Shown: piece after piece, positions 20,837 through 64,000 of the stretch
How positions within the stretch are numbered: position 1 is the stretch's first letter
Layout of the letters: the number at the start of each line of letters is the position of its first letter
Assembly (NCBI GenBank): GCA_002633005.1
Contig: NMRA01000263.1
Coordinates: 521,631 to 585,630 of the forward strand
DNA: 64,000 nt
Reading direction: 5' to 3'
DNA from: Phoronis australis
Taxonomy: Eukaryota; Animalia; Phoronida
Made by a program: the position numbers and the translations under genes
The notes under the pieces: generated by a model
The model's input: only the letters and a program-made list of their open reading frames with translations
Told to the model about the DNA's origin: nothing
The model's database searches: none

Positions 20837-21218
20837 GGTCGGCTTTTATGTAATTTGCAAACAAGAATGGTGAATAGCCTCCTTAATCAGCGTTTCAAAA
20901 AATATTTCGCAGTTGCCCCTACCAGTCTCATTCAAAATTCCAAGTCCAATATATGAAGATGGCCGTTCAGATGACGTCATCGTGCATGTAGAATAAAAGC
21001 AGAAACGTGGTATAGAAAGGTTTTACAGCTGAAACCACGGTTTGACGTAACTATGGAGTAAATTTTATTTTTAGAAAATATTTTAATACAAAATATTGCA
21101 TAAAAGTGATTTCATGGTAAAAATTGCTTGTTTTTTCTTTAAATTTTATTTATTTTTATTTTGTGTGGTGAGTTTTTTCGGCCCTGGGCAACACGGAAAC
21201 CGACGTTCAGTCGCAAAA
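20837..21218. promoter_or_regulatory. Putative bidirectional promoter and 5' UTRs of reticulon and SPTLC2
   Basis: Divergent start codons 382 bp apart. CCAAT 20946-20950, YY1-like AAGATGGCCG 20956-20965, full CRE TGACGTCA 20972-20979, TGACGTAA 21043-21050. Confidence 0.7.
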
Positions 21219-27300: not shown

Positions 27301-30300
27301 TTAGGGTTACATAATAGTCACACATACGTACTCAGGAATGGCCTAGTAGTTAAAATAATAGGAGGCCTTGCAATTGAGAGCTCGTGGGATTGAGCTATAA
27401 TGTTCCCTAAGCGTTGGACTAGAGTTTGTTGACATTTCTGTGTGAAGGCACCTCTCCATTTTTGAGGTTGGTTCTCATTATGATGGGTAAGAAATATCAG
27501 CAAGGTAACAGGGGTTCTTAACTGGGTGATGCTCTTAAATTATAGGAAAATTTTTCATTGACATGTGCGTTTTTTTAATTACTGATTATAATGTCGGGAT
27601 CATGTGAGCACTGAGATGATTATCACACTCTGTTCCTGTCATTTCATTGCATTTGTTGTACTGAGTCACTATCACACAAATTTCCTCGTGGCTCATAACC
27701 GTATAAAAACATGTTATATTAATGAGCATTGCACGGGTTACCTGTGGTGGATATGAGGAATAGATTCAAAGGCATGTGAGTTTAATGGTATGAGGCTTTG
27801 CTACTTTACATAAGGAATGAAGTTGCATAGTTCTAACATTGTCATCAAGGTTGATGTTTTGTGCATAAGACATTTTGGTTTTGATTTAGTGACTTTGGTA
27901 ATTTCAAGAGAAAAAATTCTTATCAGTGGTAAATAGGATGGTGAACCATGATAAAAGGGTGTGTCCCCCCTATTTGTGGCTGAAACTTGAAAATTATGAA
28001 AGTGCCCAATTACCTCTTACAAACTGGGCTCAAAAATTTCCTTGCCGCCAATTTGTTTTTACTATCAAAAAGAATCTAGAGATCACCAGCAAAGGGTGAC
28101 TTTCAAATAACAATGTGGTGACTCAGATTACGTCATTACGTACCATTCTCCTGGAGTGTAAAAATCAAGAAATTTCCACTATCACCTTCTAATCTAGAAT
28201 CACGCTCAATTAAACTTGTCAAGCAAGCCGTTAAGTACACAATACTGTGGTTAAGCTAGTCAGAGCTTACAGTCATACAAATGAATCAACAGTGAAATTT
28301 GAGTATAATTTCTCTCAAAGTCAATCATTTTTCTCCATTCAAAGTTTTTTGGTTAAAATATTTCACGACATTTGTTGAAAGTCGTTTGCAAATAGTATTC
28401 TTAAATATCGGTTAGCTTGGCGTCGGGTGCGTTGTTTACAGCGTAATTGCTGGATTACGTTAGCTTATCAGATGAAAGCAGACAATAAGAGAGCTGGACT
28501 ATGTAAACATTGGTTTACCACTGTAAAACTGATAACGACAGACACAGCTGTATCCTGACTGGCCGCCCAGTCAATGGGGATACTCATTCCACTGCGCGGG
28601 TACGTAACATGGGACCAGAAATTAGCTGCCACTAGAGGGCGAGGTAGCAATTTGTCTTTTCCTTAAGACACATTACACATTATCACACGCACTGTGAAGG
28701 GACTTTTCACAAAGTCAAAATGTTCCCGTATGTCACCTGCTGTGTGCCTGTTTGTACAGCCAGATGGCGATATGAGTCACTGGTCTCACAGTATCAGCTA
28801 CAACTGCTTTCTGAAAATTTCCCATTTTAAGGAAGTGGTTAAGTTCTTTAAGGGTTGCCCATCCCTGGCAAAAGCGATGCCATTTTGATACCCTTTCTTA
28901 CTTGCCGTTGCTTAGAATTGTCTGTCTCAAGATGGAAATCATTTTCTATCCTGATTTGTACTGGAAAGGTTTGAGATATATTTATGTGGTTGAATAACCC
29001 AGTTTGTAATTGGAATTTTAGGTGGTAAGGAGAAACTGGCCCAGTTTGATTTGTTTGGAATAAATTGACCGATGTGCTTTCAGATATGAAAAGTTTAGAA
29101 AAAGTCCTGAGTGACGCTGTCGTTTATGGTCAGCCCAGGACACATCGACCATGGAAGAAAATCTTAATTGTTGTTGAGGGTATATATAGGTGAGTATAAG
29201 TGCCTGAAGATAATGGTATGGATTCTCATACGTTGAAAGACTGGATGGACAAGAATACCTCAACCCCCATCAAGGATCTGTGGAGACACCATGGCTTGGT
29301 GTAGGTGACTGCTGTTTACTTACACAAATAGTGAGAGCCAGTCCTTGATCATTATAAGGACTGTAGAAGGCAGATTGAAATGTTTGATGTCCTAACTATC
29401 AGTCTCTTAGGGAAGTTGATCTAAATCTTGCTGTTGTAGTGAAGTCCAAAACATGTAATTATTTGCCCATTTGGCCAAAAAGCATTTTGTTCTGGTATGT
29501 ACCCAACTCATTTTGAGACCTGTAGTATCTGACAAAAAGAAGAAATATTGGAAATGAAACGCCCTCTACATCGTTTTCAGCCAAGTTCTCGTGTTTCTTT
29601 TTTTGAAAAGCTACGTAAACATGGGTAAGCCATGATTTTCCTAGTGATGAGAAAAAAACCAAAAAAATCTGCATCATTTTGCTCATCTTGATTTTCTTTT
29701 TTAATAGTGAAGATAACCACGTGGATTTTCAAAAAAACAGACACTAATCACGTATGCTTTTTAGGCCTGAAATGGATGGTCTTATAGGCCCTAATTAGGA
29801 TTCGGTGCTGTATGGTACAGGCTGCAAAATCTACGACATAAATTCAGTTCAAGCTTTGATGCATTAACGTTTACTTGTATCTCTTCAGTATGGAAGGCTC
29901 GATTGTGCGACTGCCAGAGATCATTGAACTGAAGAAAAAATACAAAGCCTACCTTTACCTGGATGAGGCACACAGCATCGGGGCCTTAGGCCCCACAGGT
30001 CGGGGTGTAGTGGAGTACTTTGGATGTGACCCCCATGATGTGGACATACTAATGGGCACATTTACCAAGAGCTTTGGTTCTGCTGGTGGATACATTGCAG
30101 GGTCAAAGGTCAGTGTAGATGTTATTGCTGTTAAGTGAAATGCAACATGGTAAGACTATGTATAACTCTGTGTTGGTCACTGTTTTATGGGTTGGAGTCA
30201 TATGCCTTCTCATAATGGGAGGGAATTCAAAGTGAATGAAATCTGAAGTTATTTTCTTATTCAAAATCCTGCTTTCTATTATGGAATAGAGTTGCACGGA

Positions 30301-44363: not shown

Positions 44364-44567
44364 TCAGCTCCGCATAGATTCATGCCGGTAGATGTATTTG
44401 TCAGGTTTGTGGTTGGAGTCTTCACCTTTTTGACCAAGGTCCTGCCACACTTTGAAGTTATTGTCCTTGCGGAAGGACTCCCAGCGCACGTCATCTGACT
44501 CATGGGTAAGATAGCGACACCCGACCTCGGACTCAAGTATTCGCAGGTCACACCAGGTCAAGTAATC
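44364..44567 (-). CDS. PRKD1: PKD last coding exon
   Basis: [30 protein letters not shown]...[10 protein letters not shown]-stop. Confidence 0.92.
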
Positions 44568-47500
44568 CTGAATAACGAGAAAAACAGATTATAAATTACA
44601 AAGTCATCCTTTAATTTAAACACTCTGGTTATGTTAACATAGTGATAAGAGTTTGATTGTTATTTCATTTGGTATTTTAATTACAGTACACTTACTATTT
44701 ATAATTGTTCTTGGGCATTTACATTGAAGTTTTACGCTAAGCGATAGGTGAACTACGGCATCTGTCTATGATCTCAGCAGGTAGTCCATGATTTGAATAC
44801 GCATTTTTGATCAAACCAGCTATATTAAGCCGGTGATAAATGACGATTAAGTAACTTAGCATTTTCCCAATTTTGCAATTATTGACAATGAAAATGGAAG
44901 TTAAAATAGCTACTGAAATTTATGTAAACAACAGTATTGGCACATGATTAGCATTCAATCACTGGTCCTCTTCACCAGAAACTTCCAGTTGTAAATATCG
45001 TAACATGTTTTATGCCGTGCTTCAAAATAGCCATCAAAAAATTTCGAGGGGTGCGTTTTTGAGTATATAATTAATCAAAAACAACAGAATAGCATATAAT
45101 AGTAAAATCAGCATTTGATCTCATAATTAATAGAAACATCTAATTGATGATCATTCTCTACATGACGTCCTACAGCTGAACACTATCCGTGTCATATGCT
45201 CTTACAATAATCTGAATGGTTATTGTACAACCACGTGCCATCATTATCTTGCAGGGGAAAGATAACAACCCTGGCTAATAACATCACCCACATAAAAACA
45301 AACAAGTTATACATAATTTAAAACATATTCACAGAGCTTATCTTATCCCTAGTACCTAGCCACAAAAGTCTGTTAAAGTTGGTCTATTTGAACGGATTAA
45401 CTGTCTCATGCCTGGCTTAATAATTATACATTCAAGTAACAGGTAATGACCAAAAGTCAATCCAATAATTCTCCATTTTGTACAACCACCAACTTAATTA
45501 CCACTCACCCCTCCCATCTCTAACCACAGACTAACTGTGCTGTGAACAGACTGCCTCCACTTTACCATCAGTCAAATTATGACTCACCTCCACCCAACAC
45601 CTAAAGCCGTAGTAGTAGTATTCTTTCTATTGATGAAAATATCCGTAAAATGCAATTTGCACAATAAAACGTAAAGTAGATTTTGATAATAAAAACTGTT
45701 CAGATAGTATACCTGCATCCAGACATGAGCAAGGGCTTTATCCACAGTGAAACGTTTGCGAACTTTGACCTCTAGCAAGTTGCCAATCAGTTCGATACCT
45801 GTTAAAATAAAAAATATGCAATATATCGACAATTAATTTGTTTTTCATCCACTAGAGTAAGAAAAGGAAAGTAAAGTAAGTGGTTATTGGTATTTATTAA
45901 TGTCATCTTTAATATACATATGTTCAACAGTATGTTAATTCTTTGCAATATCATATTCATTCAAATAAATAATTAACATCCACCAGCAACATCTATTCAT
46001 GCACCTTTCAAAGTCTATTGCAGCACAACGCCATATGTTTTATCCAAACCTTTACAGCCCAAATGAAACAACTAGTAACGCCACTTAATGATTCACCAAA
46101 GAACCAACCATTCCTTAACAGACAACTCATTGCACTTAATCTTAAGCAATAACCACTTCCTATCTCAACATATCACTTCATATCTATTATGAAGTGACCA
46201 AGTCCAATTTTGTAACTGAATGTGGCATCGCAACCAATGAAGCCTGGTACAGTGGAAGCAAAAGTATTCAGACAAAATTACCCAGAATTCCGTCACGACA
46301 ACTGGGCAGAAGTTAGTCATTGCTAAAGTCATACTCTTTGCTTATGACTGAGAATGAAGGGAAATTAACAAGAAAGTAAGGTGCCAAGCCATTTTGTAAT
46401 TAAAATTTTGCCGCCCCAATAGTTATTACGTAATTTTTACTTTTTAAGTTGTCTTGACAGAACTGTGTAATTACTTAGGTCTTGTAGTGTAGTTAACCAT
46501 GGTTGTCGCAAAGTACATCTCATAACTGTTACAGTTCATATAATGCAGAGGAGAAAACGTGATGTAGTTACCCTCTCTTGAAATCTCCTTCCACGGGTTC
46601 GGTGGGAACATGAAGGCTGCATTCTGAATTTGATCGCTGATTTCTTCATCTTCATTGAATGGGAAAGTTCCACTCAGACTGAAGAAAAATTCACGATCAC
46701 AAATATGTAAAACACAAGTCAGTAAACATTGAAACTAATTTTCTCCATTGCCATGATGCCAGGATTGGCTAAAATTTCCAAGTCAATAGAGTCTAGGTCA
46801 AAACAGTACATCCAAATTTTCTGGTGCATAAGTGCTACAATGTCAATAAACTCAATTGTCTAAATGTTACTTCTTTATACTGCTGACCAATATCGACTTC
46901 ACTGTCCTAAAAATGAGTCACGACCATTATCTGTAATTATACCATGTGAACGTTTCCATAAACATTAGATTTGGTCAGATTATCTTCAGATGTAACCAGA
47001 ATAAAAAATCCGGACACATTACAAAGTTATACACTCATACCTTCATATTGACCATTGCCATGGTAATGCGAATTTAAACTTTTTAGGCAAGTAACGCGTA
47101 TCACACCTTGATTCGATCCCACACACTCTCATTTTAAAGTCATCTACATTCTGATGTCACATTTAAACCACGTGCTACATGCAAACTTGTATCAAGGCAC
47201 TGCACTTACCATCATCACACTATTGCACAAAACATGTGTTTTCAAAGACTGAAATGTTCACTGAATTTTAATATATGTCATATGCGCAGAATAATTTTGT
47301 GATCACAATGATGTAACCAAATGGCGTTAGTTGATTGTTTTGCAACATAACGATCATTGCATGACCGCAGAGTTTGATCTCCTTCCCCAAATGCAATTGA
47401 TTGTTCCACTGTACATTCCAAGCAACTTCTGAAAGTTTTTTCAAAAGTTCTTCATAACATTTTTCAGTAAAGAACTGGTAGGTGACAACCGAGCGAGTGA

Positions 47501-49857
47501 CTGACATGCATTCCAAAGCCCAGACATAGCCTCCTTCCATGAATAACTTAATATCAAATGCAATCATATGATGAAACAGCTACTGACAATCACACTCAAT
47601 CAAATTGGTTTTCAGACCCCACAAGTGTGACAATGATCTTGGCTCTGCCATACTCACTAACACATTTTTGGGGTCTGAAAACCAGCATAACGACCTCGGG
47701 ACATTCAATAATTGTATCATATTGGTCATTAAAGGCAATGCCAAGCGACCGTTTCTGCTTTTGATAATGTCTTCTGCTTCCCCTTCTCAAAAATTGTCCC
47801 TTTGCCAACATATTTTTGAGCAGAGTTACGTAATGTTGACGATTTCCACGACATGTTGTTCAGCAGTTCTAGGTGGGTCGCCTCATGGATGTGACGGTCT
47901 CACCACCTGGTGATTAGCAAGTGCCCAATATTTGACACATTCCTTTTTCTATCTTGTACAAGGCAACAAAACAGAATTCTTCAGATTTTTCCCACTAGCC
48001 TCCTATTGTTGATTTAGAACAAAGCTGCAACAAGCTCCTTAGTTCAGTGCATTCCAAACTCTATAAAGCAAAATGTTATGACCACCTCAAATTGACCGTA
48101 CCTGACGTAAACAATCACACCAACAGACCACATGTCAAGTGATCGGTTGTATCGTTTGCTCTTCAAAACTTCGGGAGCTAGAATAAAATTAGAAGGACCC
48201 AGCATTAGATCACATGTATAATTTCCTCCAAAAGACAAACTCGGTGAGAAGGAAAGTGTGTGAAGAGAGAGGTTACAGTGGAAGTCATGACTAGAATATC
48301 AGGCTTTTTCAGTCATGACTAGAGTTTTAGTCAAGTTCCAATTATGCAAATGAACTGACTAAAATGTGACTAAACCGATTCAAATATATCATGGATAAAC
48401 TTTAAGTCCGATTTTCATCATGACTAAAACAAACCATCTCCTGTGTCTGAAATGTGACTAAAATATAACTAAAACATGACTAACCTAGGGCAAGGAAAGG
48501 ATGCTCTGTGAATGATGGTTGTTCATGTTCAAGTTCTGTGGTAAGAATGTTTTGAGTGTGGTACGTGGCAAGTGTTATGTTGCGGGTGGTAAGAGTTTAA
48601 TGGCCTATGGTAAGGATTTGTTTCGTAGTAAGAGTTCAGCGACCTGGTGTAAGAGTTTGTTTTATACTTACAGTTCAGAGACCTGTGGTGGGGCTTTGTT
48701 TCATGATAAGAGTTCAGAGGCCCATGGTAAGGATTTGTTTCAAAAATGCAACACTGATCTCGATAATGCGACTCACCCAGATATGCAGGTGTCCCCACTA
48801 CGGACCTACGGAATGACTTCTCACCAATAATGCGAGCAAACCCAAAGTCACACAGCTTCACCTGAAACATTTAATACCGTAATGATAAAAAACTCATCAT
48901 TTTCTTGGAGGTGATAGAAGTAATTAAGCTTCAGGGATTGGGAACACTTTGTCAGTAAATGTGTTAGGAATGTTCTTCTCACACCAAAAGGACTTTCGAA
49001 CAAATTCTTGCTCGAGTCATTGAATGTAGTATTTGAATTATTACCAAATATGTTTAAGCCATTTCAATTAGGTTTGAACGAAGTCGCTGTTCATTACAGC
49101 AGTCAAAACAAAAAATGACTGTGTTCACTTGTGTTAGCCAACTCAGACAACTCTGCCTAGTCTCAGTTAAATTGACTAGAGCTAAAATCCATCACCATAA
49201 TCATAATTGGTCAATAATCTCTCTACGTAGGCTGGACTTCAAGACAGAGTAGCAGAGGAACGACCAAAAGATAATGCTTCAGCTGAAGCTTCCTATAGAT
49301 CACTGAGTGGCTCTTTGGCTGTTTATTGTGGACTAAAAGAGTGAATGTCTTCAACTAAGGTACTGAAATAATGATAGTTGGAGTACACCACTGATGTATC
49401 TTAAAGTTTACACTAAAGGAACTTGCATTGATCCACTCCTTGAACTGTTAAGTTTCTGGTGCTTGACTCTCCTCCATACAGTGGATTATGGGAAAGACCT
49501 GGGGGTTCTCTTCTACACAACGGTTAGAGAATGGGCACTGGATATAATGTCACATATTACGTTTGCTTACCCATACTACGCATGGCAAAATACTGACCCA
49601 AACGAAGACGATACCACCCATATCACGAAGTGAGAATACATGGCAACCAAAACGGTATCTGAGACAACAATGACTCTTCAGCACTGGTGGCAAGCTCCTA
49701 CCAACCTCCCCTGTAGAAGAGGCACCCCAACGACAGACCAATTATGTATTTTACTCACCTGAGGGAATGGTGCCTCAGAGGACAGTAAGACGTTCTCTGG
49801 CTTCAGGTCACAATGGACTATACTCTTGGAATGAAGGTGCTTCAGCGCCACCAGGAT
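44364..49857 (-). CDS. PRKD1: Protein kinase D (PRKD family), 3' part only: six exons covering the kinase C-lobe and tail
   Basis: Exons 49857-49759, 48861-48777, 48177-48102, 46678-46572, 45798-45713, 44567-44364. [35 protein letters not shown] (PKD activation loop), RYLTHESDD. No upstream PKD exon recognised in 49858-64000. Vertebrate paralog assignment is nominal. Confidence 0.95.
45713..45798 (-). CDS. PRKD1: PKD exon
   Basis: [29 protein letters not shown]. Confidence 0.95.
46572..46678 (-). CDS. PRKD1: PKD exon
   Basis: [35 protein letters not shown]. Confidence 0.96.
48102..48177 (-). CDS. PRKD1: PKD exon
   Basis: [26 protein letters not shown]. Confidence 0.96.
48589..48742. repeat. 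Degenerate minisatellite, 39 bp x about 4, in a PKD intron
   Basis: GTAAGAGTTCAG...ATGGTAAGGATTTGTTTC-type units. Confidence 0.75.
48777..48861 (-). CDS. PRKD1: PKD exon (DFG and activation loop)
   Basis: [28 protein letters not shown]. Confidence 0.97.
49759..49857 (-). CDS. PRKD1: PKD exon (catalytic loop)
   Basis: [33 protein letters not shown]; ttgtag acceptor, gtgagt donor. Confidence 0.96.
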
Positions 49858-51642
49858 CTACAAGTAGACAAGAACAACATGACTCAAGTACTCGCACAAT
49901 TATTGTGTTGATCAGTTGCGCAGAAATGCCGAGAATGGGCAGATGAGAGCATTAACACGTTCAAATATTGAAAATGGCCAAACCACCAGCACATGACTAC
50001 CAACGTGCCACTACTAGATTCAGCAAGACTTTTCAAATGGGCCAAAAATCATTCCTCTGAAACTTTCAGCATGTTCAGGACTTAGAAGTACGTAGAGAAA
50101 TTTTAATATATTATACCAGCCATTTTCAGAACAAACACAATATAGATTTCCTTCCCTGTTTGAAACAGGTTTTGCAAAAGCAAAACTGCACAAAAACAAC
50201 AATGACGCATCAAGAAAAAGTGCACTTTATAATGATCTTGGTCCTACATTTAAAATCGTCATTAGCTAACAGGATATTCATTCATTTATAATACAGTAAC
50301 ATCAATTTTTGATATAATGCAAATAAAAAACTCTTAAATCTCATTTCTATAAAACAGATACATATCACCAATTAATGGTTTCCATGTATAAGGTCTCTAC
50401 CACAATTACCATGTGCCAATATGCAACAAAAAATTAAAGACCACATCTCAGTATTTCAAAAATTGGAAAATGACAATCTCTCCACATAAGTCATGCTTTA
50501 TTTTGGTTCCGACTGTGTTTTCACTGCGCGCACAGTCCAATCCTGGTTCAAAGCACAAATCACAGTGTAAAATACTGTTCAACATAGATTTCTTATGCCA
50601 CAGTCCCTCCCCTCCACTTTCCCTCTGAGTGCACATGTTCTTATCCTGGACCATAACACTGAGTGCAAGCCAACTGTTCCAGACATAACCTACCAACAAA
50701 AACTTAATGAAAGCCCATTTCTATTGGCCAGTCCAGTTATGCAAACACACACTTGTAATGTGTAAACAGTTACTGAGAGAATGTTGATAGTGTGTATGCA
50801 TCAGCTCTGAATACCTTTACATACAATACCTGGCTGGGGGTCTACCACATTGATAACAGATCTCATTTCATATATGTTTCTCACTGAAGAATGTGATTAT
50901 AGGCTTTATTCCAGTTCAAAATGACAACTCACTGAATGGGAGTTTTCTAGAACGTTAGCACAAGTGGAGGTTTTTGAGATCACAGGTATGTGCTGGATGT
51001 ATTTAGTTCATTTTCGTACAGTTTACATCAAGGACAATAAAGTATGCAACCTTAAGCAGAAGATTTGAAAAAAATGTATATTGAAGATTGTTTTTAGCAG
51101 GCATCTAAAGAACAAAATAAAAATCTATAGTTATTTTCCTGTTCTCAGAGTTGCTGTATTTCATGACACACCGTTACAAAGTTTAGGCTACTCAAGCTCA
51201 GCCTATTGATCACCTGTCGCAGGCTAAGACTATGAGTAGACATACTCCACTGTGCAATGCTGGTCACTTTAAAACATCCAATGATAATCATGTGACTTAC
51301 TAAAGACAATACAAAATCAATGAGCTTTAATTGATCGCTTATCAAATGTTCAAAATGAGCAAACAAACTAGATAACTAGAGGCAGAAAACAGTGTCACAC
51401 TGAAATGACTAGGCAATAATGGACGAGTAAAATTGATTTAATGCGTTTGGGTTTTCCAGATTATGGGAGATTTGCAGACGAAGGGGGCAACACAAGACCT
51501 ATCTTATAATGGATTTGAACAGAATAAGGAGCAAACTAGAGTGTCTTGGTGTTGTATCATCATTATGAAAACCAGAATATGATGAACGAAGCGTAGCGTG
51601 AGTGTAAGGTAACTGCCAGTGATCAACACCACGGAAGGTCAG

Positions 51643-51777
51643 ATGGAAACGAGACATAAAGGAATTCTGAGCAAGAGGCTAGGGTACCTTCAGGAGAACA
51701 TGATAATGGACACGGTGTTTTATGGATGCCTACTTCAGAAGGAGATATTTACTGACAGCATACTAGAAACTATTAAG
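51643..51777 (+). CDS. CARD-CC paralog 1 exon 1 (CARD N-half)
   Basis: First in-frame ATG after TAA at 51610; AAG/gtatgg donor; aligns with paralog 2 exon 1. Confidence 0.8.
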
Positions 51778-54700
51778 GTATGGGGTTAGTTTTGAGGTTA
51801 TTTTATATTAAGTTATGATGATTTGTTTTGAGGTTATTTTATATTAAGTTATGATGATTTGTTTTGAGGTTATTTTATATTAAGTTATGATGCTTCACTG
51901 TTCACACTTTCTCTAGACTGTGTCATTCATACCATGAGGAGTGTTGGTCAGTGTGAACGCTAAACTTCAGTAACAAACAGGAGCATATAAAAGAGGAACG
52001 TTGACAATGAATGTTGTATGCTATCAGACACCTGGCGTCACTGTCAATAACTGAACGTGTTGTTGGCATCACTTTCAAATATTTTCTCAAATATTCACTG
52101 TTTCGCAACTAATAAGCATTTGATTATATTGATTATCAAAGTACGATACTCCAATTTAAAAAGATTACGCCTATAAAACCTTTTTAGAGCGCCAGCTCGC
52201 ATTAACTTGTATGACCCACACCTCAAACCAAGATTAGTTCAATTTACATTTGCTCCTTCTCTGGAGTTGGTATGACAACGCCTAAGAGCTTTGTATATAA
52301 TGGTCCTTCCTGGGAGACATAAGGATGTTAAGTAAAATCTACGGCCCTCACATGAGTGTATACCTTATACACACTTCCAGCACCTCGTCCACACTGTGGA
52401 TAACCATTCTAACATGACTTTTTTACAGTACTGTATTTAAAAAAAATGCAGTCACTGTGGTACTCCGGTCATAAAAACTTGTGTAGAATCACAAATATCA
52501 TGTAGTGAGTAATTAACTTGAACGAAATTTACACCAGTTTGCATCGGAATACTAATCACAATAAGAATAAATACGCACCTCAATTTTTCCAAGTACCTAT
52601 TAAAAGCACATGACTCTACACTAAAATACCATCTTCCACATTGTCTGTTTGGATGAAACAGGTTCATTTGACAGGATGCATCATAAATTAGTTACTCTGC
52701 TTAAAGCCACATATCACTAACGTTCCAAGAAGTCCACCAGATGTCGCCAAGCAAGATGACGTCACACGTCCCAGCCTCTCGCATCATCCTTAGTTTGAGA
52801 AAGGCCTCAGAGTGAAGGCCACATTGATGTTGACATTTCTAAATGCTTGTCACTTTCAGGTCGAGACAACAGAAACTGAACGGATATATAAGCTAGTCAA
52901 TCTGCTCAAACGGGCTGGCCCTGAAGCATTTAGTAAGTTCCTAGAGGCATTGGAAGAGACCAAGCAAGCCTTCATTGCGGAATCCTTAGCAAAGCTGGAC
53001 TTGGATTCTTTAGATGGTAATTTTTGCACTTGGATGAATCATGACAAACTGGTAATAAAACACAAAATGGAATTCACTAATTTTCTCATATGAAGAGGTA
53101 TACAGGACATGTTGCTCAGATGTGTGACTTTTTCATGTCCAGATTTCCTATAAAAAGATGCCTTTTCTAACAAAAGTTCCAAGGCCTGTTCTGACAAAAT
53201 TCTTCACAAACTGGTTTAATTTGGTAGTTCAAACTCTACTGAAGATTCCCACTACAAAAACCAACAAAATGGGTTTATTACCTATTTTAATAACTTTTGT
53301 TATAAAAGATAGGCTAATTTCTTATACTGATTCAGATTTAAAGGGTAAAATTACTGAAGTAAGAAATCCATAAGGCCCAATTAAAGGTTTGAACTTACAA
53401 AATTAATTGCTACAAAATAGGGGTGTTTCTGCACCACAACCCTATGAAAGAGGGGCTTTATCATGAAAGATTGGGTCCCACTTTTTCGAATCCAATCTCC
53501 AAATGGGTGGGTACCGTAATTTTCCAGCAACAGACCCCACAATCAAAATATAGGTGAGAACCCACGGGAGTAAACATATTTGAAAAACCTCAGCGAAGTA
53601 CAAGTGGTAGAATGTATGGTATTAACCACTATATGCTTTCATTGAAGAAGGGCTGTGTTCCAAGAAGGAAAAATCTTGCCATGCACGACAACCAAAGTAC
53701 ATAATCCTGCTAACACTCTCGTGTGTGTCTTAGGTCTATAGAATGAAACCAGCTGGGCAAGCATTCAGAAGCATCAGCTTATAAGATGCATTACTTGTAG
53801 GTGGATCTAAACAAATCTTGGCCGTCATTGAAGCAAGTCTGACAACACATACAAGAGAAAAGATGAAGATGAGAGACCTAAGGAAACTTGTTGATATCGT
53901 CAACAGTCAACGAGAAAAGAACAGGTGAGCACGGTAAAGAATATTCAGTTTGGGACCCAATATGCCGGACAGGTGAAATTTCATTTTGGCAAATTTCTAA
54001 ACAAAAATAAATTTTTAGGAAAATTTTCTTACTTTTAGCGTGGTTGGTATGGTTTAGCTATTACCAATCAATACTTGGTACTAAGCTTTTGAGCATTTGC
54101 CACTAAAAATATAAATATGGCAATTTATTTTTCTCCAAATTGAAGAATTTTTTACCTTAACAGCAGCCTAGATAATAGAACTGGAGAAAGATGAGGTTTC
54201 TTAAACCTCAGGAGGCTTAAGAGGTTTCAACATGAAGAACAGCAATCAGGACTGTAAAACATTAAGATTAACAAATAGTTTCGCATGATCAAATATTTGC
54301 TATAACCACTGGACCCCATAACAATTATCAAAATAGGAAAATGCAAAGGTTATGTTTTGAAACATTCTTTGAAATTCAGCAAACATACCGTTAGAGCATG
54401 CATATCATTGGATGAAGGTAAGTGAACTGGTACATGAGTGGCATACCATATTGAGATGAAGCAAATCTGCATGTGAGCAGTTACACTGTTCACAAATTAA
54501 TGAGAAAGTACGGAAGGAAGACAATCCAAGAGTACATACAAGATATTGCCAGCTTCTGCACCTTTCAATGTACTCAGTATATGCTTACACAAACTTAATC
54601 CAAGCAGTTTCAAACTTTCTTTTGAATTTTCCAGGGGTGAACTTGAAGTAGCAAATGACAAACTCTCCAAAGCACTACTCACTAACAAAGACTTGCAAGA

Positions 54701-55655
54701 CCAGCTGGAAGACAAGGAGCTGGAGCTCGCTAAACTTAAGGACGAAATCCGTGCCAAAGAAATAGCCATAAATGGCTTCCAAAAAGAGATCAGAGGCCAC
54801 AAAGACAAAGTGCAGAAAGACACGGCTCTTGAAAGCCAAGTCACACAATTCAAAGCGATAGAGTCAGGGCTTTTGAGTCAAATTGAGCAACAAGAGACTA
54901 TTATACAAGAAGCAGAGAGTAAGCTTGATGAGTTGGTGGGCACGGAAATGAACAATAACGAAGTCACATTCAGGTCTGAACCGGAAGGAAATGAGGGCGA
55001 GATTGGAAGCAAAAATGTCTTGCTGCTACACATACAATTTGTTGGAGATAAAATTAAAAACATCGAGGATGAACTGATGAAGGCCAAGAAGCAAGTGGAG
55101 GAGCTGAGGATAGTGGAGAAAGAGTGCTTGAAGATGCTGGACATCGATGAGACTGAAACTGGACATTCTGTTGAACTCCAGGACAACCTGAAGCGGTTCT
55201 TGGAGGAGAATGAGAGAGAGAGGGAGGAGGAGAGATGCCACATTGAACAGTTAGAGCAGAAGCTGGATAAGGCATACTGTAGGAAAGTGGAACTGAAGAA
55301 CCAACTTAAAGAGCTACAAAAGGATAAGGACATGTTGAAACATGAGAAGGAGTCATTGAAGCATAGTATCAGGTTCATGAAACAGAAGATTCACAGTAAG
55401 TCGCCAGTGCAGACCAACCGACTAACATTTGAAGCAGATGGTGATCGCAGTCAATCGACTCTGCCTAGAATTCATCACCCCGGCTTCAGAGGGAGCTACA
55501 GCATCCAACCATCTGCCAGAAGATTAAGAAAGAGTGCCACGGAACCAACATCCTTAGATAGGATGTCGTCAGATGAAGACTTTTTAAGTCGAAAAGTCAA
55601 TGATGGATATAGCGGGAGAAAGAAGACGCGTCACTTATCAATGGATTTTTCATGA
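51643..55655 (+). CDS. CARD plus coiled-coil protein, paralog 1 (4 exons, 478 aa), antisense within the PKD intron
   Basis: Exons 51643-51777, 52860-53016, 53801-53924, 54635-55655 (phases 0,1,2; 1437 nt). METRHKGILSKRLGYLQENM...LLQKEIFTDSILETIK / ...LLKRAGPEAFSKFLEALEETKQAFIAESL is CARD-like; E/K/L/Q-rich heptads follow; AATAAA at 55744. Confidence 0.85.
51789..51892. repeat. Tandem repeat, 36 bp x about 3, next to the CARD-CC paralog 1 exon 1 donor
   Basis: GTTTTGAGGTTATTTTATATTAAGTTATGATGATTT units, perfect copies. Confidence 0.9.
52860..53016 (+). CDS. CARD-CC paralog 1 exon 2 (CARD C-half, 157 nt)
   Basis: tttcag acceptor; RAGPEAFSKFLEAL motif; G/gtaatt donor. Confidence 0.87.
53801..53924 (+). 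CDS. CARD-CC paralog 1 exon 3 (linker)
   Basis: ttgtag acceptor; ends QREKNR with AG/gtgagc, same ending as paralog 2 exon 3. Confidence 0.8.
54635..55655 (+). CDS. CARD-CC paralog 1 exon 4 (coiled coil and Ser/Arg-rich tail)
   Basis: ttttccag acceptor inside the 369-aa ORF 54546..55655; heptad-rich sequence. Confidence 0.88.
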
Positions 55656-56978
55656 ACATAAAAATGAGTTTAGACGAGATTCTTTGATAAGCTTTCACCT
55701 GTAGAATCAATGAGACTATCTAATTGATGATTTATATTTTAATAATAAAATATTTTAGCTTAATACCCCCACCACGTTGGTGACCCCAGTGCTATGACAA
55801 GATAATGCTGTCATGCCTGAGGTTATGAATGACTGTTTAGATGACAAAGTTCATAAAGCCTAGATATTTCAGTAAGAAGCACATATCACATCAATTTTAT
55901 TGACATTGGAATTGATATCTGAGGAACATAAATCAGAAAGGTCAAAGTGCACATTGGCCATTCATGAAGATGCGGTAAACATTCTTCAGTTTGAATACGT
56001 GAAATTTCATTTTGTCAAACTTGTCAACAAAAATAACTTTTCAAGGATATTTAATGTGGATTACATGGTGTATTAATTACCAAACAACATTTGGTAAGAG
56101 TTGAGCACTGCCCCACATTGAAGAGTTTTTACCGTACCTTTCGCATTTATTAAATTAGGAAAGATCTTGGGTTTTGAATTATCCTCATCAATGAAATGGC
56201 ATGCCATGGAATCATGAAAATGGGTGTACGGTAAGAAAATTCAGACATTTGAAGCACTGGGACTGGAAAATATAACATGGTCAGCTGAAATAATGCATTT
56301 CCAAAATTCAACAAAACAAGAAAACAAAAATGCTTTTAAAAATCATATATTCTAAAAATGATTTGAAAAATAAGTTTGTGAGAAAACAGTTTTTCACAAG
56401 ACGTCTATGATAATAAATGGGTTAATTACGGTTCTGTACAGATCATCTGGAATGCTCTTGTAAAAAATAGCCACTAGGAGGTGCTGCACAAGTCTAATCC
56501 ACCCAAAAATCATTTAATGGTGATGCATTCCCATTATATACCTCTGGTGTTAACTTGTTGGAAGCCATCTTAACTGGTTCCCCAGATACCATCCGAAAAT
56601 GCTGTTCTCTCAAAACGACACTTGAAAAGCCTTTTGCAGAAAACAAAGTGGCCACTAGGAGGTGCTCGAGAAGCCAAATCTGCCCAAAAACTTAATGCTG
56701 CTGGCACACTGATATGACATACCTCTGTCAAGTTCCATAGAAATCCGTCAATCCATTAGATATCATCACCAAACACTATTTCACCAAAAAATACTGAAAA
56801 GCCACACCCCATGACCCCAGGAGGCGGGGCAGATTAAAAAGAGGCATGAACCACTCTAGTGAATCACTTACACCTTTGTGCCAAATTTCATCAAAATGCG
56901 ACCACCGGGTTTTTGAGATATTGAGCGAACAACTGGAAAACTGGATGCAAGGACACCCAAACAAAGTGACAACATTAT

Positions 56979-57486
56979 AGGGCCTTTCGTACTAATGTTG
57001 ATGCGTCGATGGTTTGGGGAGTTGCGGTCAGTATAAACGCTTAACTCCGGTCCTAGATCGCAGTTAACAGCTCCAGTTAACATCGCAGTTAACAAGTGGA
57101 TTTAATAGCGCAGCGTCGACGCTGCGGTGCAGTATGAACGCTTAACTTCGGTCCAATAGAAATTATCGCCAGGTGCCACTGTTATTGTCAACAGTTACAG
57201 GGTAGTGCCGTCACTAATAGCTGTTTATAGTTTGCTCTAACAATAACCAATCTATTTAAAAATAAGTTTATTGTCACTTAGCACATGTTATGTTTCCATA
57301 TTGAAACATTCAAAAAAAAATGTTAGCGTGCAACGCTACCTTGCGATAACTTCGATGACGACAGCGGCACCAACCGCTTACTTCGATGTTCATTAACTAC
57401 CGAAGCCAGTATGAACGGTCCAGTTAACTGAGCTGTTTACGTCGACGCTCCGCTCAGACCGTAGTTAAGTCAATATGAAAAGGCTT
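56979..57486 (+). mobile_element. PIF/Harbinger-type MITE, copy 2 (just upstream of CARD-CC paralog 2)
   Basis: TIR AGGGCCTTTCGTA / TATGAAAAGGCTT; 3-bp TSD TAT; colinear with 22492-22998. Confidence 0.85.
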
Positions 57487-57654
57487 TATGAGACCACAAT
57501 CACACACACATGTCTGATAACACAGGAAACATTCCAATATCAACAGGCAGCTTATCAGCAAAATCTCCCTATAAAAGACTCAAAAAAATTAATGATCCCT
57601 GATGCGATTAGGGAACAGGATATAAAAAGATTTACAGCAAAATGAGACGAAAAG

Positions 57655-57831
57655 ATGTACCGAGCACTCAAATCCAACAGTATGACCTTACAGATGAGTA
57701 AAAGACATAAAGAAGTACTGAGGAAGCACATAACATTCTTGCAAGATAACCTGGATGTTACAAGTTCCCGTCTATATGCCTCCCTACTGCAAAATGGCGT
57801 CTTATGTGAGGAAATGATCGAAGCAATCAAG
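57655..57831 (+). CDS. CARD-CC paralog 2 exon 1
   Basis: ORF 57655 to AAG/gtaaga; the true start may be a later in-frame ATG (57682 or 57694). Confidence 0.8.
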
Positions 57832-60800
57832 GTAAGATGGGAAGGATTTTCAAGGGGAAAAAGGATAAGTTAGCAAACACATGAACTTGCTAAAAAGTCT
57901 GAACAAACTGGTTTCACCCATGCTTGTGTGAACTGTTTGAACACAGGGACCCAAGTGCCTCTAAATGACAACAAAGAATTCAAATTTCTCCACAAAAATG
58001 TACCAAACTTAAACTCTTTATTTAAGGATGGTTCATATTGAATACATAACCATAGATGTCACAAAAAACTTCCAAATCAGCAGGAACTTTATATGATTTT
58101 TGTTGTACAAAGTGAATAAAAATCTATAAAAGCGTGGCTGTAGAATTTGAATTTTGACCTCTTATCAATTTGTTATGAATTGGGTCATGTTGTTTTTTAG
58201 TAAAATTTAGCAAAAGGGAAAGTACACCATTTAACAAAACCACGATATTAACAACATGACCAAATTTTGCTCAATATAAGTGTTCAAAACGAACGCTGTT
58301 GCCCATCTCTGAGATTCAATGTTCCACAGTTGGTCAAATTTGGATATTTTTATTTTCTAGGGTAATACATACCGTAACCTCAAGAAAAATTTTTGTTATT
58401 ATTTAAAAGCATAAAGATGGCTAGAATTAAGCAGTGAAATTATCATTTAGGGAGAGTCAATTGGCATAATGAGTGCTAGAACATAGCACAAAGATTTCCT
58501 TGGATCCACCACAGCAGTACTGGCCACTTTCAATACCTAACTGGCTTAACATGCGGAGCATTGCATAACATCAAATACTACCATGAAATGACCAGAATAC
58601 AGTAGATACTTTATGGAAACACGAAAAAAAAAAAACATAATCAGCATGCCATTTTCAGGATTTAACAGATACTTTTTTATTCAAACATGGGGTTGCGCCC
58701 CCTTATTACATTCTAAATTAGGCAGTTACATGAATTGATTGGTTCAGCTTTACTAGCAGTAGCATTCACCTATTATTAATACTTGGCTGCACCTAATGTC
58801 AAAAGAAGTGGTTACAAAATGAACAAGTTATCAAAATGAAAGGTGCTATGACTCCAAAATCAACACGTGCACATTTTCTTGAATCCTACAACCCCGTTTT
58901 AAATCCCTGATAGACACAAGTGAACCGGTCAAAAATTAAGCTGGCCAATGATATATTGACAATAAACAACCAACAAGAATTTTCTTGGAGACCACTAACA
59001 TGGACAACAGGAGGGCAAGGTATGGTAGCTGAATAAAGCCATCTACTGGCCCAAGTGTGTTCTTTAATAGCACTGAATATGACTTAAAATATTGTTAATC
59101 ACAAAATCAATATTAGTTATTTTTACAACTATTTTAGATCAAGGAGACCACTGGGGACAAAGTCTTCGAACTAATCACACGTTTGTCTTCCTGTGGTCCA
59201 GATGCTTTTGAAAAGTTTGTGGAAGCCTGTGATGTCCCAGGACAGGCACATATAGCCACGACCTTACGTGGAGCAGACAATGAATTACTAAGAGGTAAAG
59301 GAAATAAAAATACCAATAAATAATCAACTGCATTGATTAGGTTGTGTGACAGCACTTCCACCAACGCAACACACCACATTTTTTCAATTGACTAACAAGA
59401 GTTGCAGAAATGCATATAGTATGAAAGCCTTTATTAGTAAAGTTCCTGTCCAATACATCCCACTTTTTCAATTAAGCGTCCAAAGCTCAGACAAGAGCTC
59501 AACTGTAATTAACTAGTAACACTATTTTGTTCACAAATGATATAGAATATCAGATTATTAATTTCAATTAGTGTAAACGAACAGTTAAAAACCAGGAAAA
59601 TGTAAGAAAAAACAGAAAAGTAAGAAAAGTTAAAACAACTAGAGCACATTTTGGGCTTGGAGGGAGTAAATAGCCTGCATGGTGGCTTAGGATTTTGGAG
59701 AAGGTTGTAAGTCATGGGTGTCCTTCACTGCATAAATGGCAAAAAAATAGGACAGAAGACATGATTTGTCATATTAGATCAAACTAGTTTTGCAGAATAT
59801 AACACAATTTTTTAGTTTTATGTTATCATTTATACCTTATTAACACTCTACACAGTACAGCTTATTGACTATGATCTTTCCAGCCATTCCCTACGAGAAG
59901 ACAAAGGCTGTGGAAGTATTCCTTAACAAGGTGTTGGAGCAGAACATATGTTTGATACCAAGGCTGCAGATTGATGAGATGGTGAAAGAATTTGTATTCA
60001 AGACAGACTTCGAAAAGGAGAGAGAGAAAAACAGGTGGGGACATATCGGTGGTTAAGGAAATCTATCCAGTGATGTTGCAGGGGTCTTCTTGAAGAAACC
60101 GGCCAAACACACCAGGGCTTCCAAACTGCAATGCTGATGAGATCTAACCTGTCGACGAGCAAGCAATGTCAGTAAAGAACACAACAGCTTCTCAGTGTTG
60201 CAAGATATTGTCACATTCATTACTAGCATAAAAGTCATGAAGAATGGTCTCTAAGGTGATAGGGTACCTTCCATATCAGTACAAATGGATCAGGGTGATT
60301 ACTGCACTAGCAAAGACTTAGAGCAATCATATGCTGGCTGAAATAAATTGAAATGATATGTACCAACATTAATATTTATGCCCCCCCCCCCAAGAAATGC
60401 AATGAAAATTAACCAAAAACGATGTAGATTCTGTATGCTGACCAGTATTCAATCAAAACAGAAGTTTTGACATTAACATATTTCATCTGAGGTAATTAAC
60501 ATGCCACTTAGGGAGGCAAGATCAATGGATTAATAGACATTTACACTTAGAAACCACTGCCATCTGTATGTAGTGCGCAGTAAAGCGCAGACTTTATCTT
60601 CAAGCCAGGGTACATTTCTCCTACCGAAAATTATCCTCCCACTGAAAATTGTCGTGATAGCCCTCACTTGACCATCACTACTACGATTATAGAAAATCCC
60701 TGTTAACAAATATAATTAAACTTATTAGCTGACAATTGAAAATAGGTATTCCGGTAGAAACCCAGAAACATTTACAGCCAATATTAACAACGAGTTTTTG

Positions 60801-61775
60801 AAGACATCTATAATCCAGTTACGCACTTTATATGATGTGGGAATCAATATAATGGGAATAATTCCCATCAGGCTTTGCAGCACTCAGTGGTGCCTAGAAA
60901 GGATATACATGTCTTGGTAATATGCTATTACATTTTTCAGGGAATTCCAAGATGCCATTCAAAGACTTTCCGAGGAATTAGTTAGAAACAAACAATTGCA
61001 AGACGATTCAAAAAAACACAAGGAACAGGAGCTGGCAAAACACAAGGAAGAACTTCAGAAAAAAGACAAAGAAATTGCGGATCTTAAGAAAGACCTCAAA
61101 GCCCAGGACAAAGAAAAAAAGTTGCAGAATATCATAGAAATGGCCAAGACTGAGCTCAGCGAGTTGGTCGGCACGGAAACAGGGAAATCTGAACAAGAGG
61201 GAAATGATGGTGAGCTCTGTAGCAAAACAGTGTTACTTCTACAGATTCAGTTTGTTGGAGGAAAAATCAAGAACATCCAGGACGAGAAGGCAATAGCCAA
61301 GAGGAAAATAGAAGAACTGGGTAGAATTGTGGAAGATTGTAAGAATATGCTGCGTCATGCCAGTACTGCAGATATTGCATCTAGAGAGCTGAAGGAAAAT
61401 CTGAGAAGGTTCTTAGAACATAACAAGAGAGAAAAGGAGGAACAGACACGTCACACTGAACAGTTGGAAGCCAAGTTGAAATGGGCATTGGGCATGGAAA
61501 GCCAACTACGCCAGCAACTGAAACATTTAGAAGTTAATAAAATAATAATAAGTCATGAAAAGAAACAACTGGAAGACACAGTCCAGCTTTTGAAAGTGAT
61601 GATAGATGAAAACTGTTCAAGAGCAGAAGAGCTGGCATCACAACAAATTGAAGCAACCAGCAATTGCGATTCTAATCCTGTGGAACTACCTTCAATTCAG
61701 AATGTTAGCTCCAAGAATCAGGCCGACATCAAAACCTTAAGAGCTGACATCGACAGGGTCTTTAAACCCAAATGA
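57655..61775 (+). CDS. CARD plus coiled-coil protein, paralog 2 (4 exons, 439 aa), antisense within the PKD intron
   Basis: Exons 57655-57831, 59138-59294, 59884-60034, 60941-61775 (phases 0,1,2; 1320 nt). MSKRHKEVLRKHITFLQDNL...LLQNGVLCEEMIEAIK / ...SCGPDAFEKFVEAC...QAHIATTL; coiled coil clearly homologous to paralog 1. Confidence 0.85.
59138..59294 (+). CDS. CARD-CC paralog 2 exon 2 (157 nt)
   Basis: ttttag acceptor; IKETTGDKVFELITRLSSCGPDAFEKFVEAC; same length and phase as paralog 1 exon 2. Confidence 0.87.
59884..60034 (+). CDS. CARD-CC paralog 2 exon 3
   Basis: ctttccag acceptor; ends EREKNR with AG/gtgggg. Confidence 0.8.
60941..61775 (+). CDS. CARD-CC paralog 2 exon 4 (coiled coil)
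   Basis: tttttcag acceptor in frame with the 259-aa ORF 60996..61775. Confidence 0.88.
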
Positions 61776-64000
61776 AAATGTTTCTCCATGTTCACTGAAC
61801 AGGGGAATGAACAAAGAACTTCCGTGATCCAGACCAACAATTTACCCTGATAAGTTAGGGATAAATTATGTTGGTAGAGGCGCAGTTAGTAATGTTTACT
61901 TTTAAAGCTCCCATTGGTTTCAGAGGGGTGGAAGATAAGAAATCACATTGTCCATCTCAGTTTGTTGCATAGTGTGCTAGTTTGTTCAATTCATTTTTAG
62001 TCAATAGTTGCTTCAACTAAATATTTTTTCAAGTTCTTGTATTTTGTCATAAAATTATAGGTGGATCTGTAAAAAACTTTTTCCACTTGAGGAGAAACGC
62101 AAACTCAAGATCCAGGGCTTCAGGTCAAGCAAAAGGAGCATGTTGCGTAAATAAGACAGAAACTGAACTTAAAAGATGAAAACAAGGAAACTGAGATGAT
62201 AAAGAAAATGCTCAGGAGCCTTGACGCAGTGTCGTGGAGTGAGATATATACCGAGTGTCCGCTACCTTTACCTTTGGATTCATGTTCTTCTGGGAAACCC
62301 TTGAGTCGGGTCTCTAGATCTATAGCTTAGTTTTAACTTTCTATCAATAAAGCATGAAAATAGTTCCACGTGATCAGTGTGTGAATGTGCCCACTTGAGC
62401 GGCCTCTGCATGTCTGATACAACGTGTACTGGACCACCTCAAATATTTTTTTCAGAAGCCTGTGCATAACCCATGACAATGCACAGAAGACAGCAGCACA
62501 CAATGCAAACACAAATCAAAACATCCTCTACCATGCAATATTAGATGAGCATTTCTAAAGTCAAAATATCAAGGACTGTTTCTCACTCTCCAGTAGACTT
62601 GCGAGATTTATAACTCATCCATACCGGACTATATTCACATTGAAATTCCAGTTGCAAGCCATCTCAAAAACCGGTAACCAAAATTAACAGAGCTATACTG
62701 AAAATATTTATAGTTTTATTCCTAACGAGATTTAAAAAATAATAGCTTCATGAATACTGGAAATGCAGACTAGTCCTTTGAGTGGTCCATAGGTTAGGGT
62801 TTATCAACTACAGCTCACGAATAGCCCTGCACACACTAGATTCAGTTGATTTCATTAAAAAGTGATAGCATATCTTACGAATGTGGTTGCAATAGATAAC
62901 TGTCATTCTAAAGGTTACCTGCACAAGTGATAAATGGAACATCCAACAGTTTAATATCTGCTTTAAGATCCATGGCTATAATGAGGTACACATGCCAGAT
63001 TACGCAAAACAGGAAAGCAACAACTTATACAAGGATGTGAACGTAAAAAAATTTTGAATGCATCAACAAAAGATTGGGCACAAATACAGTAAACAGGTAT
63101 ATAGCATATTTAAAAGCTTCACAAACACTGATTATCTGACATTCACGACAAGGTGAAACAACAAATGTGGCAGGATTCTCTTCAAGCCATTTATATTATT
63201 GTTGATCAAGGGTTGAAACCAAGTACCAAGTTTAATGAACACAAAATCAACATATTAGTAATAAACAGGAAAGGTAGAGTATAGTGTTATCGTGTACAAA
63301 AACTTATGACTTATAGTACAAAAACTTATGACTTCTAGCACAAAAAGCATCTGTCTTCACTACTCCTCGCCACACCTAAACCACAAATACTACACCATGT
63401 AGTTATTCAGACACACAGAATTTGTTGTATCGGGGTAAATGATGTCTTTCTCAAGACAGGGTAGAAAATAATTGAAATATCAATGCAAAATGAGCCGAGA
63501 CAAAATGGACAACACATACCGGTACATAATAGGACCTCACTATATTCTAATTGCAAGGTCAGCTATGATTATGAAGTTAATCAGTCATTTTCATGGTCTT
63601 CATGTTAACAGCATAATGGAAAGTCCCTTGAACAAGCTTTGAAAAAAAAACAATTGGGTAAGGAATGATTTTCCAGGACATTGTCAGAGAAATAGTTATT
63701 TTAATTGGTAAATCTGACAATAGTTTACAAGCCTTAGGGTATGGTCTCACTTTGAGCCCTGAGAAAAGTTAACAACTAGCTCAAAATGAAAATATCAGAA
63801 CATCAAATAGACATTAAACTGTTCAAAGAAAAATTGTAATAAATGACTCAGGGAAATTTCCTGAAATAATGGATGCATAAAAGACAATAGCCATTCAAAG
63901 ACATAAATTGAAAATGTCCGAATGGCCTTTAGAAAGTTATCAAAAGAATTCCACGCTTCAATTTACCTGGGCACAAGTTAAATATGATTATAAAGCTTAA

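Follow-up and report, generated by a model that had tools for sequence, protein, structure and literature searches.

What kind of protein is encoded by two neighboring genes that likely lie antisense within a kinase gene of Phoronis australis, and does that protein have relatives elsewhere? The genes, referred to here as gene 1 and gene 2, occur in a 64,000-nucleotide (nt) window of contig NMRA01000263.1 (GenBank assembly GCA_002633005.1, positions 521,631 to 585,630), and each encodes an N-terminal CARD followed by a long predicted coiled coil, or rod. Together with homologues from a brachiopod and an annelid, their products form a CARD plus coiled-coil family that seems not to have been described before and is conserved in those two groups and P. 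australis at the least. Judged by its sequence, it probably ranks as a second family of this architecture, distinct from CARD9/CARMA and convergent with it in layout.

When the region from 49000 to 64000 is read and spliced, the plus strand yields two genes of four exons each with open frames, gene 1 at 51643-55655 and gene 2 at 57694-61775 (Table 1). The product of gene 1 has 478 amino acids (aa) and a single terminal stop, and that of gene 2 has 426 aa. All six introns have GT..AG ends, the intron phases are 0, 1 and 2 in each gene, exon 2 is 157 nt long in both, and exon 3 closes in both with REKN plus a split Arg codon. The original prediction had described two intact genes with these phases, this shared exon length and a common REKNR end, and splicing reproduces them all. 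The start ATG of gene 1 sits directly after CAG, and an upstream non-coding exon is possible; exon 1 of gene 2 has two further in-frame ATGs slightly upstream. The two proteins are identical at 153 of 411 aligned residues, with exon 3 being the least conserved exon (8 of 42). Synonymous divergence is close to saturation (dS about 3) and nonsynonymous divergence is far lower (dN 0.55), and the pair is therefore read as an old duplication under purifying selection. A third copy was sought in the window, but of its 3546 open reading frames (ORFs) none passes besides the four CARD exons already known. The window holds no Rfam match and no tRNA. A 36-bp tandem repeat (51771-51892; 3.4 copies, 94% matches) is located just past the donor of gene 1 exon 1.

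Pfam CARD (PF00619) matches exon 2 of gene 1 taken alone (25.7 bits, above the 23.9 cut-off), and does not match exon 1 of that gene taken alone. The CARD halves of gene 2, in exons 1 and 2, score 19.2 and 16.9 bits, respectively, and fall below the cut-off (expectation values, E, are given in Table 1). In the stretch of about 220-250 aa that follows the CARD in each protein, heptads are abundant. By a simple author-made score, 82 of 451 windows in gene 1 and 52 of 399 in gene 2 are heptad-like, compared with a mean of 6 and maxima of 24 and 27 in 100 shuffles per protein. Such counts, far above the shuffles, agree with the more than 200 aa of heptads that had been predicted after the CARD. 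Also as predicted, Pfam finds no caspase, NACHT or kinase family in the exons of either gene. A p20/p10 catalytic domain is absent, with both frames ending after the coiled coil and tail and no peptidase match. In the exons and in the homologues described below, Pfam gives no Death domain, the family members being 426-605 aa long with a coiled coil, and there is no NB-ARC or NACHT match. A CARD and then a coiled coil is the layout of both products, as it is in the CARD-CC family.

Word-index searches with two exons of gene 1 brought up no homologue, either among 2247 candidates for exon 4 or among 51 for exon 2. A HMMER profile of both exon-4 cores, free of the CARD, matched one protein among 1.84 billion representatives at E<=0.001, namely XP_013409868.1 of the brachiopod Lingula anatina (E 3.8e-4). 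A 576-aa member of its cluster, UPI00078A2E72, starts with a CARD (Pfam E 8e-10), though the query held none. The RefSeq model XP_013409868.1 itself is N-terminally short, with 323 aa and no CARD, and carries the label "interaptin", and for these reasons the family would be hidden from CARD surveys. A Lingula-anchored profile gave three matches among 7992 scored candidates: Lingula itself and two proteins of the annelid Owenia fusiformis, CAH1792143.1 (E 2e-73) and CAH1792893.1 (E 3e-49), each recorded as "unnamed protein product". In pairwise BLASTP, gene 1 aligned over residues 1-475 with the Lingula protein (E 7e-31; E 2e-31 in another alignment) and with those of Owenia (1e-21 and 2e-18). 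The P. australis proteins share 24-27% identity with these homologues, and Lingula and Owenia share 34%. Pfam CARD scores of the homologues are 39, 27.8 and 30.8 bits, and no other part of the protein is as well conserved between phyla as the CARD, with 26-50 identities in about 91 positions.

Scores for the coiled coil alone exceed all 300 heptad-preserving shuffles in six of six pairs, narrowly so for gene 2 versus Owenia, and the homology is therefore no coiled-coil artefact. In a five-sequence tree, gene 1 and gene 2 are sisters, as are the two Owenia proteins (supports 100/100 and 100/99). The duplications in P. australis and in Owenia are thus independent, and each gave one tail-shortened copy. 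The original prediction had described the family as lineage-specific. Since full-length homologues exist in at least two other phyla, this part of it is not upheld, and only the tandem duplication is local.

A Cys/His module, probably zinc-binding, closes the Lingula protein (residues about 519-570) and CAH1792143.1 (about 550-603); it gives weak BTK-motif and CHORD matches below the cut-off. A hidden exon for it was sought in the window, with a best E of 0.5 and none downstream of either gene; gene 1, gene 2 and one Owenia copy have lost the module. The records returned for the homologues carry no family name. Literature searches, with most subscription papers outside their scope, found no publication mentioning the Lingula or Owenia accessions, no described function and no description of a CARD plus coiled-coil family of this kind. 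Staal et al. may have counted a family member among their CARD-CC sequences.

Transcription was examined by placing three RNA runs of the same species label (X5, X6 and X7; about 18-19% of each run's reads) on 49900-64000. In most stranded libraries, first mates on the minus strand represent plus-strand RNA. Such mates cover gene 2 exon 4 at 3.2-3.9x in X5 and 1.4-2.5x in X6, with 0-0.6x on the opposite strand; coverage of this exon is zero in X7, and two bins of gene 2 intron 1 show 0-0.3x RNA. Gene 2 is transcribed at a low level and in a strand-specific manner in two of the three runs. The RNA bin for gene 1 exon 3 is confounded by a repeat. Between the genes, at 56965-57500, is a high-copy dispersed repeat with short internal repeats (DNA word depth about 60,000, versus about 40 nearby). 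RNA reads occur on both of its strands and comprise most of the region's RNA.

The affinity of the CARD was assessed by sequence and by fold. When the family profile was compared with PDB sequences, caspase-9 (E 1.3e-8) and RAIDD (5e-8) ranked first, while CARD9, CARD11 and BCL10 were absent from the 33 matches to E 10 and from the 18 matches of another search. Together with the Pfam matches, this ranking supports the predicted N-terminal CARD of caspase-9/RAIDD type. The death fold was judged on a model of the Lingula homologue, standing in for the gene 1 and gene 2 proteins, whose exons were used as alignment rows. Six helices occupy residues 2-97 at a predicted local distance difference test score (pLDDT) of about 70, long helices continue up to residue 431, and the tail falls under 50. 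With this CARD as the query, Foldseek placed caspase-9 CARD chains at ranks 1-5 (34% identity, E 0.01-0.07, none <0.001), and the CARD9 CARD only at rank 38 (19% identity). Two further comparisons were uninformative: a single-sequence Lingula fold put the CARD at pLDDT under 50, which left its Foldseek result without meaning, and the VIA-align list was filled by helical hairpins. A separate family is probable because caspase-9 and RAIDD are closest and CARD9, CARD11 and BCL10 are absent to E 10. Convergence on the CARD9 layout, raised as a possibility in the original prediction, is the better reading of the PDB profile list and the fold rank.

What such a protein might do is a more tentative matter. 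The preferred reading, held with less than even confidence, is a phosphorylation-controlled scaffold that clusters initiator caspases with a CARD, or the adaptor CRADD, by means of a caspase-9/RAIDD-type CARD on a coiled coil. Beyond protein anatomy, every step of this mechanism is inferred. The predicted rod would dimerize or oligomerize and thereby present several CARDs, and these would bind caspase-2/caspase-Y or CRADD and bring them into proximity. These partners are suggested because CARDs of such sequence type serve them. A kinase of the CAMK group (PKD, MARK/SIK or CaMK; PKD is protein kinase D) could then phosphorylate the tail, with 14-3-3 binding switching assembly or location. Gene 2, in which both tail motifs are missing, might escape this control or modulate gene 1.

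The reading matters in light of how caspases are activated in these phyla. CRADD in mammals needs PIDD for its clustering, which raises the question of how the corresponding caspases are brought together here. According to the available extract of a survey, APAF-1 and PIDD are undetected in molluscs, annelids or Lingula, and CRADD is the only CARD-containing caspase activator in molluscs, annelids and brachiopods (PMC11463336). The word "coiled" is absent from the main text of that survey, and the three homologue accessions are absent from its supplement. ASC is described as absent from invertebrates by another source (PMC11508797, in extract). A conserved, unnamed protein in which a long rod carries a CARD of caspase/CRADD type is a concrete candidate for clustering these caspases.

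Phosphorylation control is suggested by two short motifs in the tail of gene 1 (Table 1). Both are kept in four of the five proteins (gene 1, Lingula and both Owenia copies) within a tail that is otherwise poorly conserved, and gene 2 has neither. Among shuffled tails, a looser form of motif 1 appears in 1.6-3.0%, the sequences being related. Motif 1 resembles the pS/pT-x-P portion of canonical 14-3-3 motifs (PMC9523730, in extract). In the PKD substrate consensus, position -5 from the Ser/Thr is L/I/V and position -3 is Arg, and the specificities of PKD, MARK and CaMKII overlap, with 14-3-3 binding of HDAC5 depending on both CaMKII and PKD (PMC3046055, in extract). A separate, strict match to the PKD consensus exists at aa 446-451 of gene 1 and is unconserved. 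A link between the tail motifs and the host kinase is possible but unsupported.

Several observations weigh against the clustering scaffold or its control by phosphorylation. Tail motif 1 was defined only after the alignment had been viewed, and its conserved site departs from the PKD consensus in all four copies, with Lys rather than Arg at -3. In the CARD, all five members carry Ala or Gly where caspase-9 has Asp27, and the acidic face is incomplete for this reason. Caspase-9/RAIDD-like CARDs also represent the generic, ancient type, from which the partner may not be predictable, and CRADD and Bcl10 CARDs are easily confused, as stated in the extract of one report (10.1101/046789). No mollusc homologue is among the three database matches, though molluscs also lack APAF-1. 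At the RNA level, gene 1 reaches a depth of 0.3-0.6x in X5 and almost nil in the other runs. As for the proposed RNA check of the six junctions, none of the joints listed (15 of 50) has RNA reads at this depth. Finally, for the Lingula protein the top three ESM Atlas clusters are CARD9, at 0.81-0.82 and 125-128 of 256 features, which is a lead-level result.

The ESM Atlas ranking bears on the idea that the family is a divergent member of the CARD9/CARMA (CARD-CC) group, or its functional equivalent, nucleating Bcl10-paracaspase filaments towards NF-kB. The same succession of CARD, coiled coil and regulatory tail, the similar length and the report of invertebrate CARD-CC homologues of CARD9 in cnidarians, molluscs and annelids (PMC5978004, in extract) all speak for it; indeed, because those homologues have been described, a CARD plus coiled-coil layout as such is already known. 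Shared layout could also explain the ESM Atlas ranking. The profile and fold results set out above run counter to this idea, and none of the three matches of the Lingula-anchored profile is a CARD9-like protein, so that membership of this kind is considered unlikely. In invertebrates, "CARD plus coiled coil" need not mean CARD9.

Alternatively, the protein could be a decoy inhibitor, in which a prodomain-like CARD sequesters CARD caspases, CRADD or NLR CARDs without activation and the rod sets location. Caspase prodomain CARDs are the best matches in both sequence and fold, no catalytic or sensor domain is present, and the independent duplicates here and in Owenia each include one tail-shortened copy. 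The surface residues point the other way. Caspase-9 docks on Apaf-1 via Arg13, Arg52 and Arg56 (PMC6365033, in extract), but the basic residues for this docking are not retained, the positions of Arg52 and Arg56 being non-basic and helix 3 net acidic in five of five family members. This pattern weakly favors a recruiter surface over a caspase-9 mimic. A conserved rod of more than 200 aa would also exceed what a simple decoy needs, and the decoy, too, is judged unlikely.

A structural or trafficking coiled coil (centrosome, cilium, Golgi or germ line), with the CARD serving only for self-assembly or targeting and having no part in death or immunity, is a distinctly unlikely third alternative to the scaffold. 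Between the paralogues, the rod is more conserved than the CARD (103 of 224 versus 32 of 90 residues identical), and expression varies among the three RNA runs. In the ESM Atlas the rod has generic coiled coils of the centrosome and Golgi as its neighbors, which is weak evidence at low recognition; no more than about 100-125 of 256 features are shared with them, without alignment. Across phyla, moreover, it is the CARD that is best conserved.

The clustering scaffold can also be stated in a bolder form, as another CARD-coiled-coil platform of independent evolutionary origin, which would oligomerize initiator caspases in annelids and brachiopods, reported to be without Apaf-1 and PIDD, and be 14-3-3-gated at a site phosphorylated by the very kinase whose gene houses it. 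This combination is improbable.

As for the setting of the genes, the nearest kinase exon on the minus strand (49857-49759) is bounded cleanly by an AG acceptor and a GT donor; these ends and its Pkinase profile positions (107-134) mark it as internal, as had been claimed. The host is presumably protein kinase D-like, a name that comes from the family sequence, Pfam giving only Pkinase. Kinase exons then continue on the minus strand, with open frames and in sequence, down to about 44400. An earlier exon was sought in 49858-64000. Among the minus-strand ORFs there, 83 have >=38 aa and none of these matched Pfam at E 0.01; a fuzzy motif scan and a donor scan likewise turned up no candidate, with 159 ORFs of 20-37 aa being motif-scanned only. 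These results agree with the earlier statement that no such exon is recognizable up to 64000. The simplest reading, and a likely one, places the pair antisense in an intron that extends over 14,143 nt or more. It is very doubtful that the genes are real but un-nested, with the kinase gene broken by rearrangement or an assembly join or present as a truncated copy: the upstream exon is not seen and the other measured kinase intron is only 897 nt, but the downstream exons keep their frames and order, and DNA contigs, possibly from the source sample, match most of 49900-63727 with few differences, though no single piece spans it. Nesting as such is ordinary, and the position inside a kinase gene is most likely incidental.

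Elsewhere in the window, the neighbors of the kinase gene (44367-49857, minus strand) are a reticulon gene (3973-20845, minus strand; Pfam Reticulon) and a class I/II aminotransferase gene (23530-30135, plus strand; Pfam Aminotran_1_2), the latter presumably encoding serine palmitoyltransferase 2. Human RTN1, SPTLC2 and PRKD1 are all on chromosome 14, and the neighborhood may reflect an old linkage group. Inside the reticulon gene, 16879-17154 on the plus strand resembled the start of a THAP zinc finger by eye but has no Pfam match.

Table 1. Exons, tail motifs and presumed host features of the two CARD plus coiled-coil genes (window coordinates)
Feature	Position	Strand	Remarks
Gene 1 exon 1	51643-51777	+	CARD helices 1-3; 48% identity to Lingula homologue over exon
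Gene 1 exon 2 (157 nt)	52860-53016	+	CARD helices 4-6; Pfam CARD E 1.2e-5
Gene 1 exon 3	53801-53924	+	Linker into coiled coil
Gene 1 exon 4	54635-55655	+	Coiled coil about aa 140-395, then ~80-aa tail, likely disordered
Tail motif 1, L-x-K-S-x-[ST]-x-P (gene 1 aa 436-443)	55524-55547	+	Candidate kinase and 14-3-3 site
Tail motif 2, [ST]-R-H-x-S (gene 1 aa 470-474)	55626-55640	+	Candidate basophilic phosphosite
Gene 2 exon 1	57694-57831	+	CARD helices 1-3; Pfam CARD E 0.0012
Gene 2 exon 2 (157 nt)	59138-59294	+	CARD helices 4-6; Pfam CARD E 0.0067
Gene 2 exon 3	59884-60034	+	Linker into coiled coil
Gene 2 exon 4	60941-61775	+	Coiled coil, then shorter tail without both tail motifs
Internal kinase-domain exon of presumed host	49759-49857	-	Pkinase E 4.2e-9, profile positions 107-134
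Presumed host intron (>=14,143 nt)	49858-64000	-	Both genes antisense inside; no upstream kinase exon found

Several known systems resemble the family in part. Tail motif 1 shares Leu at -5, Lys at -3 and Pro at +2 with the class IIa HDAC 14-3-3 site at HDAC4 Ser246 (PMC7841527, in extract), a likeness at the level of the motif only, as the proteins are unrelated. With the Lingula and Owenia homologues, gene 1 shares a full-length alignment and the tail motifs, whereas genes 1 and 2 both lack the Cys/His module. The caspase-9 prodomain CARD (PDB 4rhw, 3ygs) and the RAIDD/CRADD CARD (3crd) are closest by profile (E 1e-8 to 5e-8) and by fold, but here no caspase or death domain follows, and the positions of caspase-9 Arg52, Arg56 and Asp27 are changed. 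In architecture, the nearest system is CARD-CC (CARD9/10/11/14 and invertebrate CARD-CC), which has the same CARD, adjoining long coiled coil and unstructured C-terminus (PMC5978004 and PMC6624267, in extract), likewise has no catalytic domain, and is similar in length as regards CARD9. CARD9 itself forms a coiled-coil dimer in which the CARD is autoinhibited (PMC6624267, in extract). In contrast to CARD-CC, the CARD of the present family is caspase-9/RAIDD-like and has no PDB sequence match to CARD9/11, and the Lingula protein and one Owenia member end in the Cys/His module with its weak BTK/CHORD matches. The present family probably works like the CARD-CC scaffolds, although its CARD sequence and fold rank tend to speak against membership in CARD-CC.

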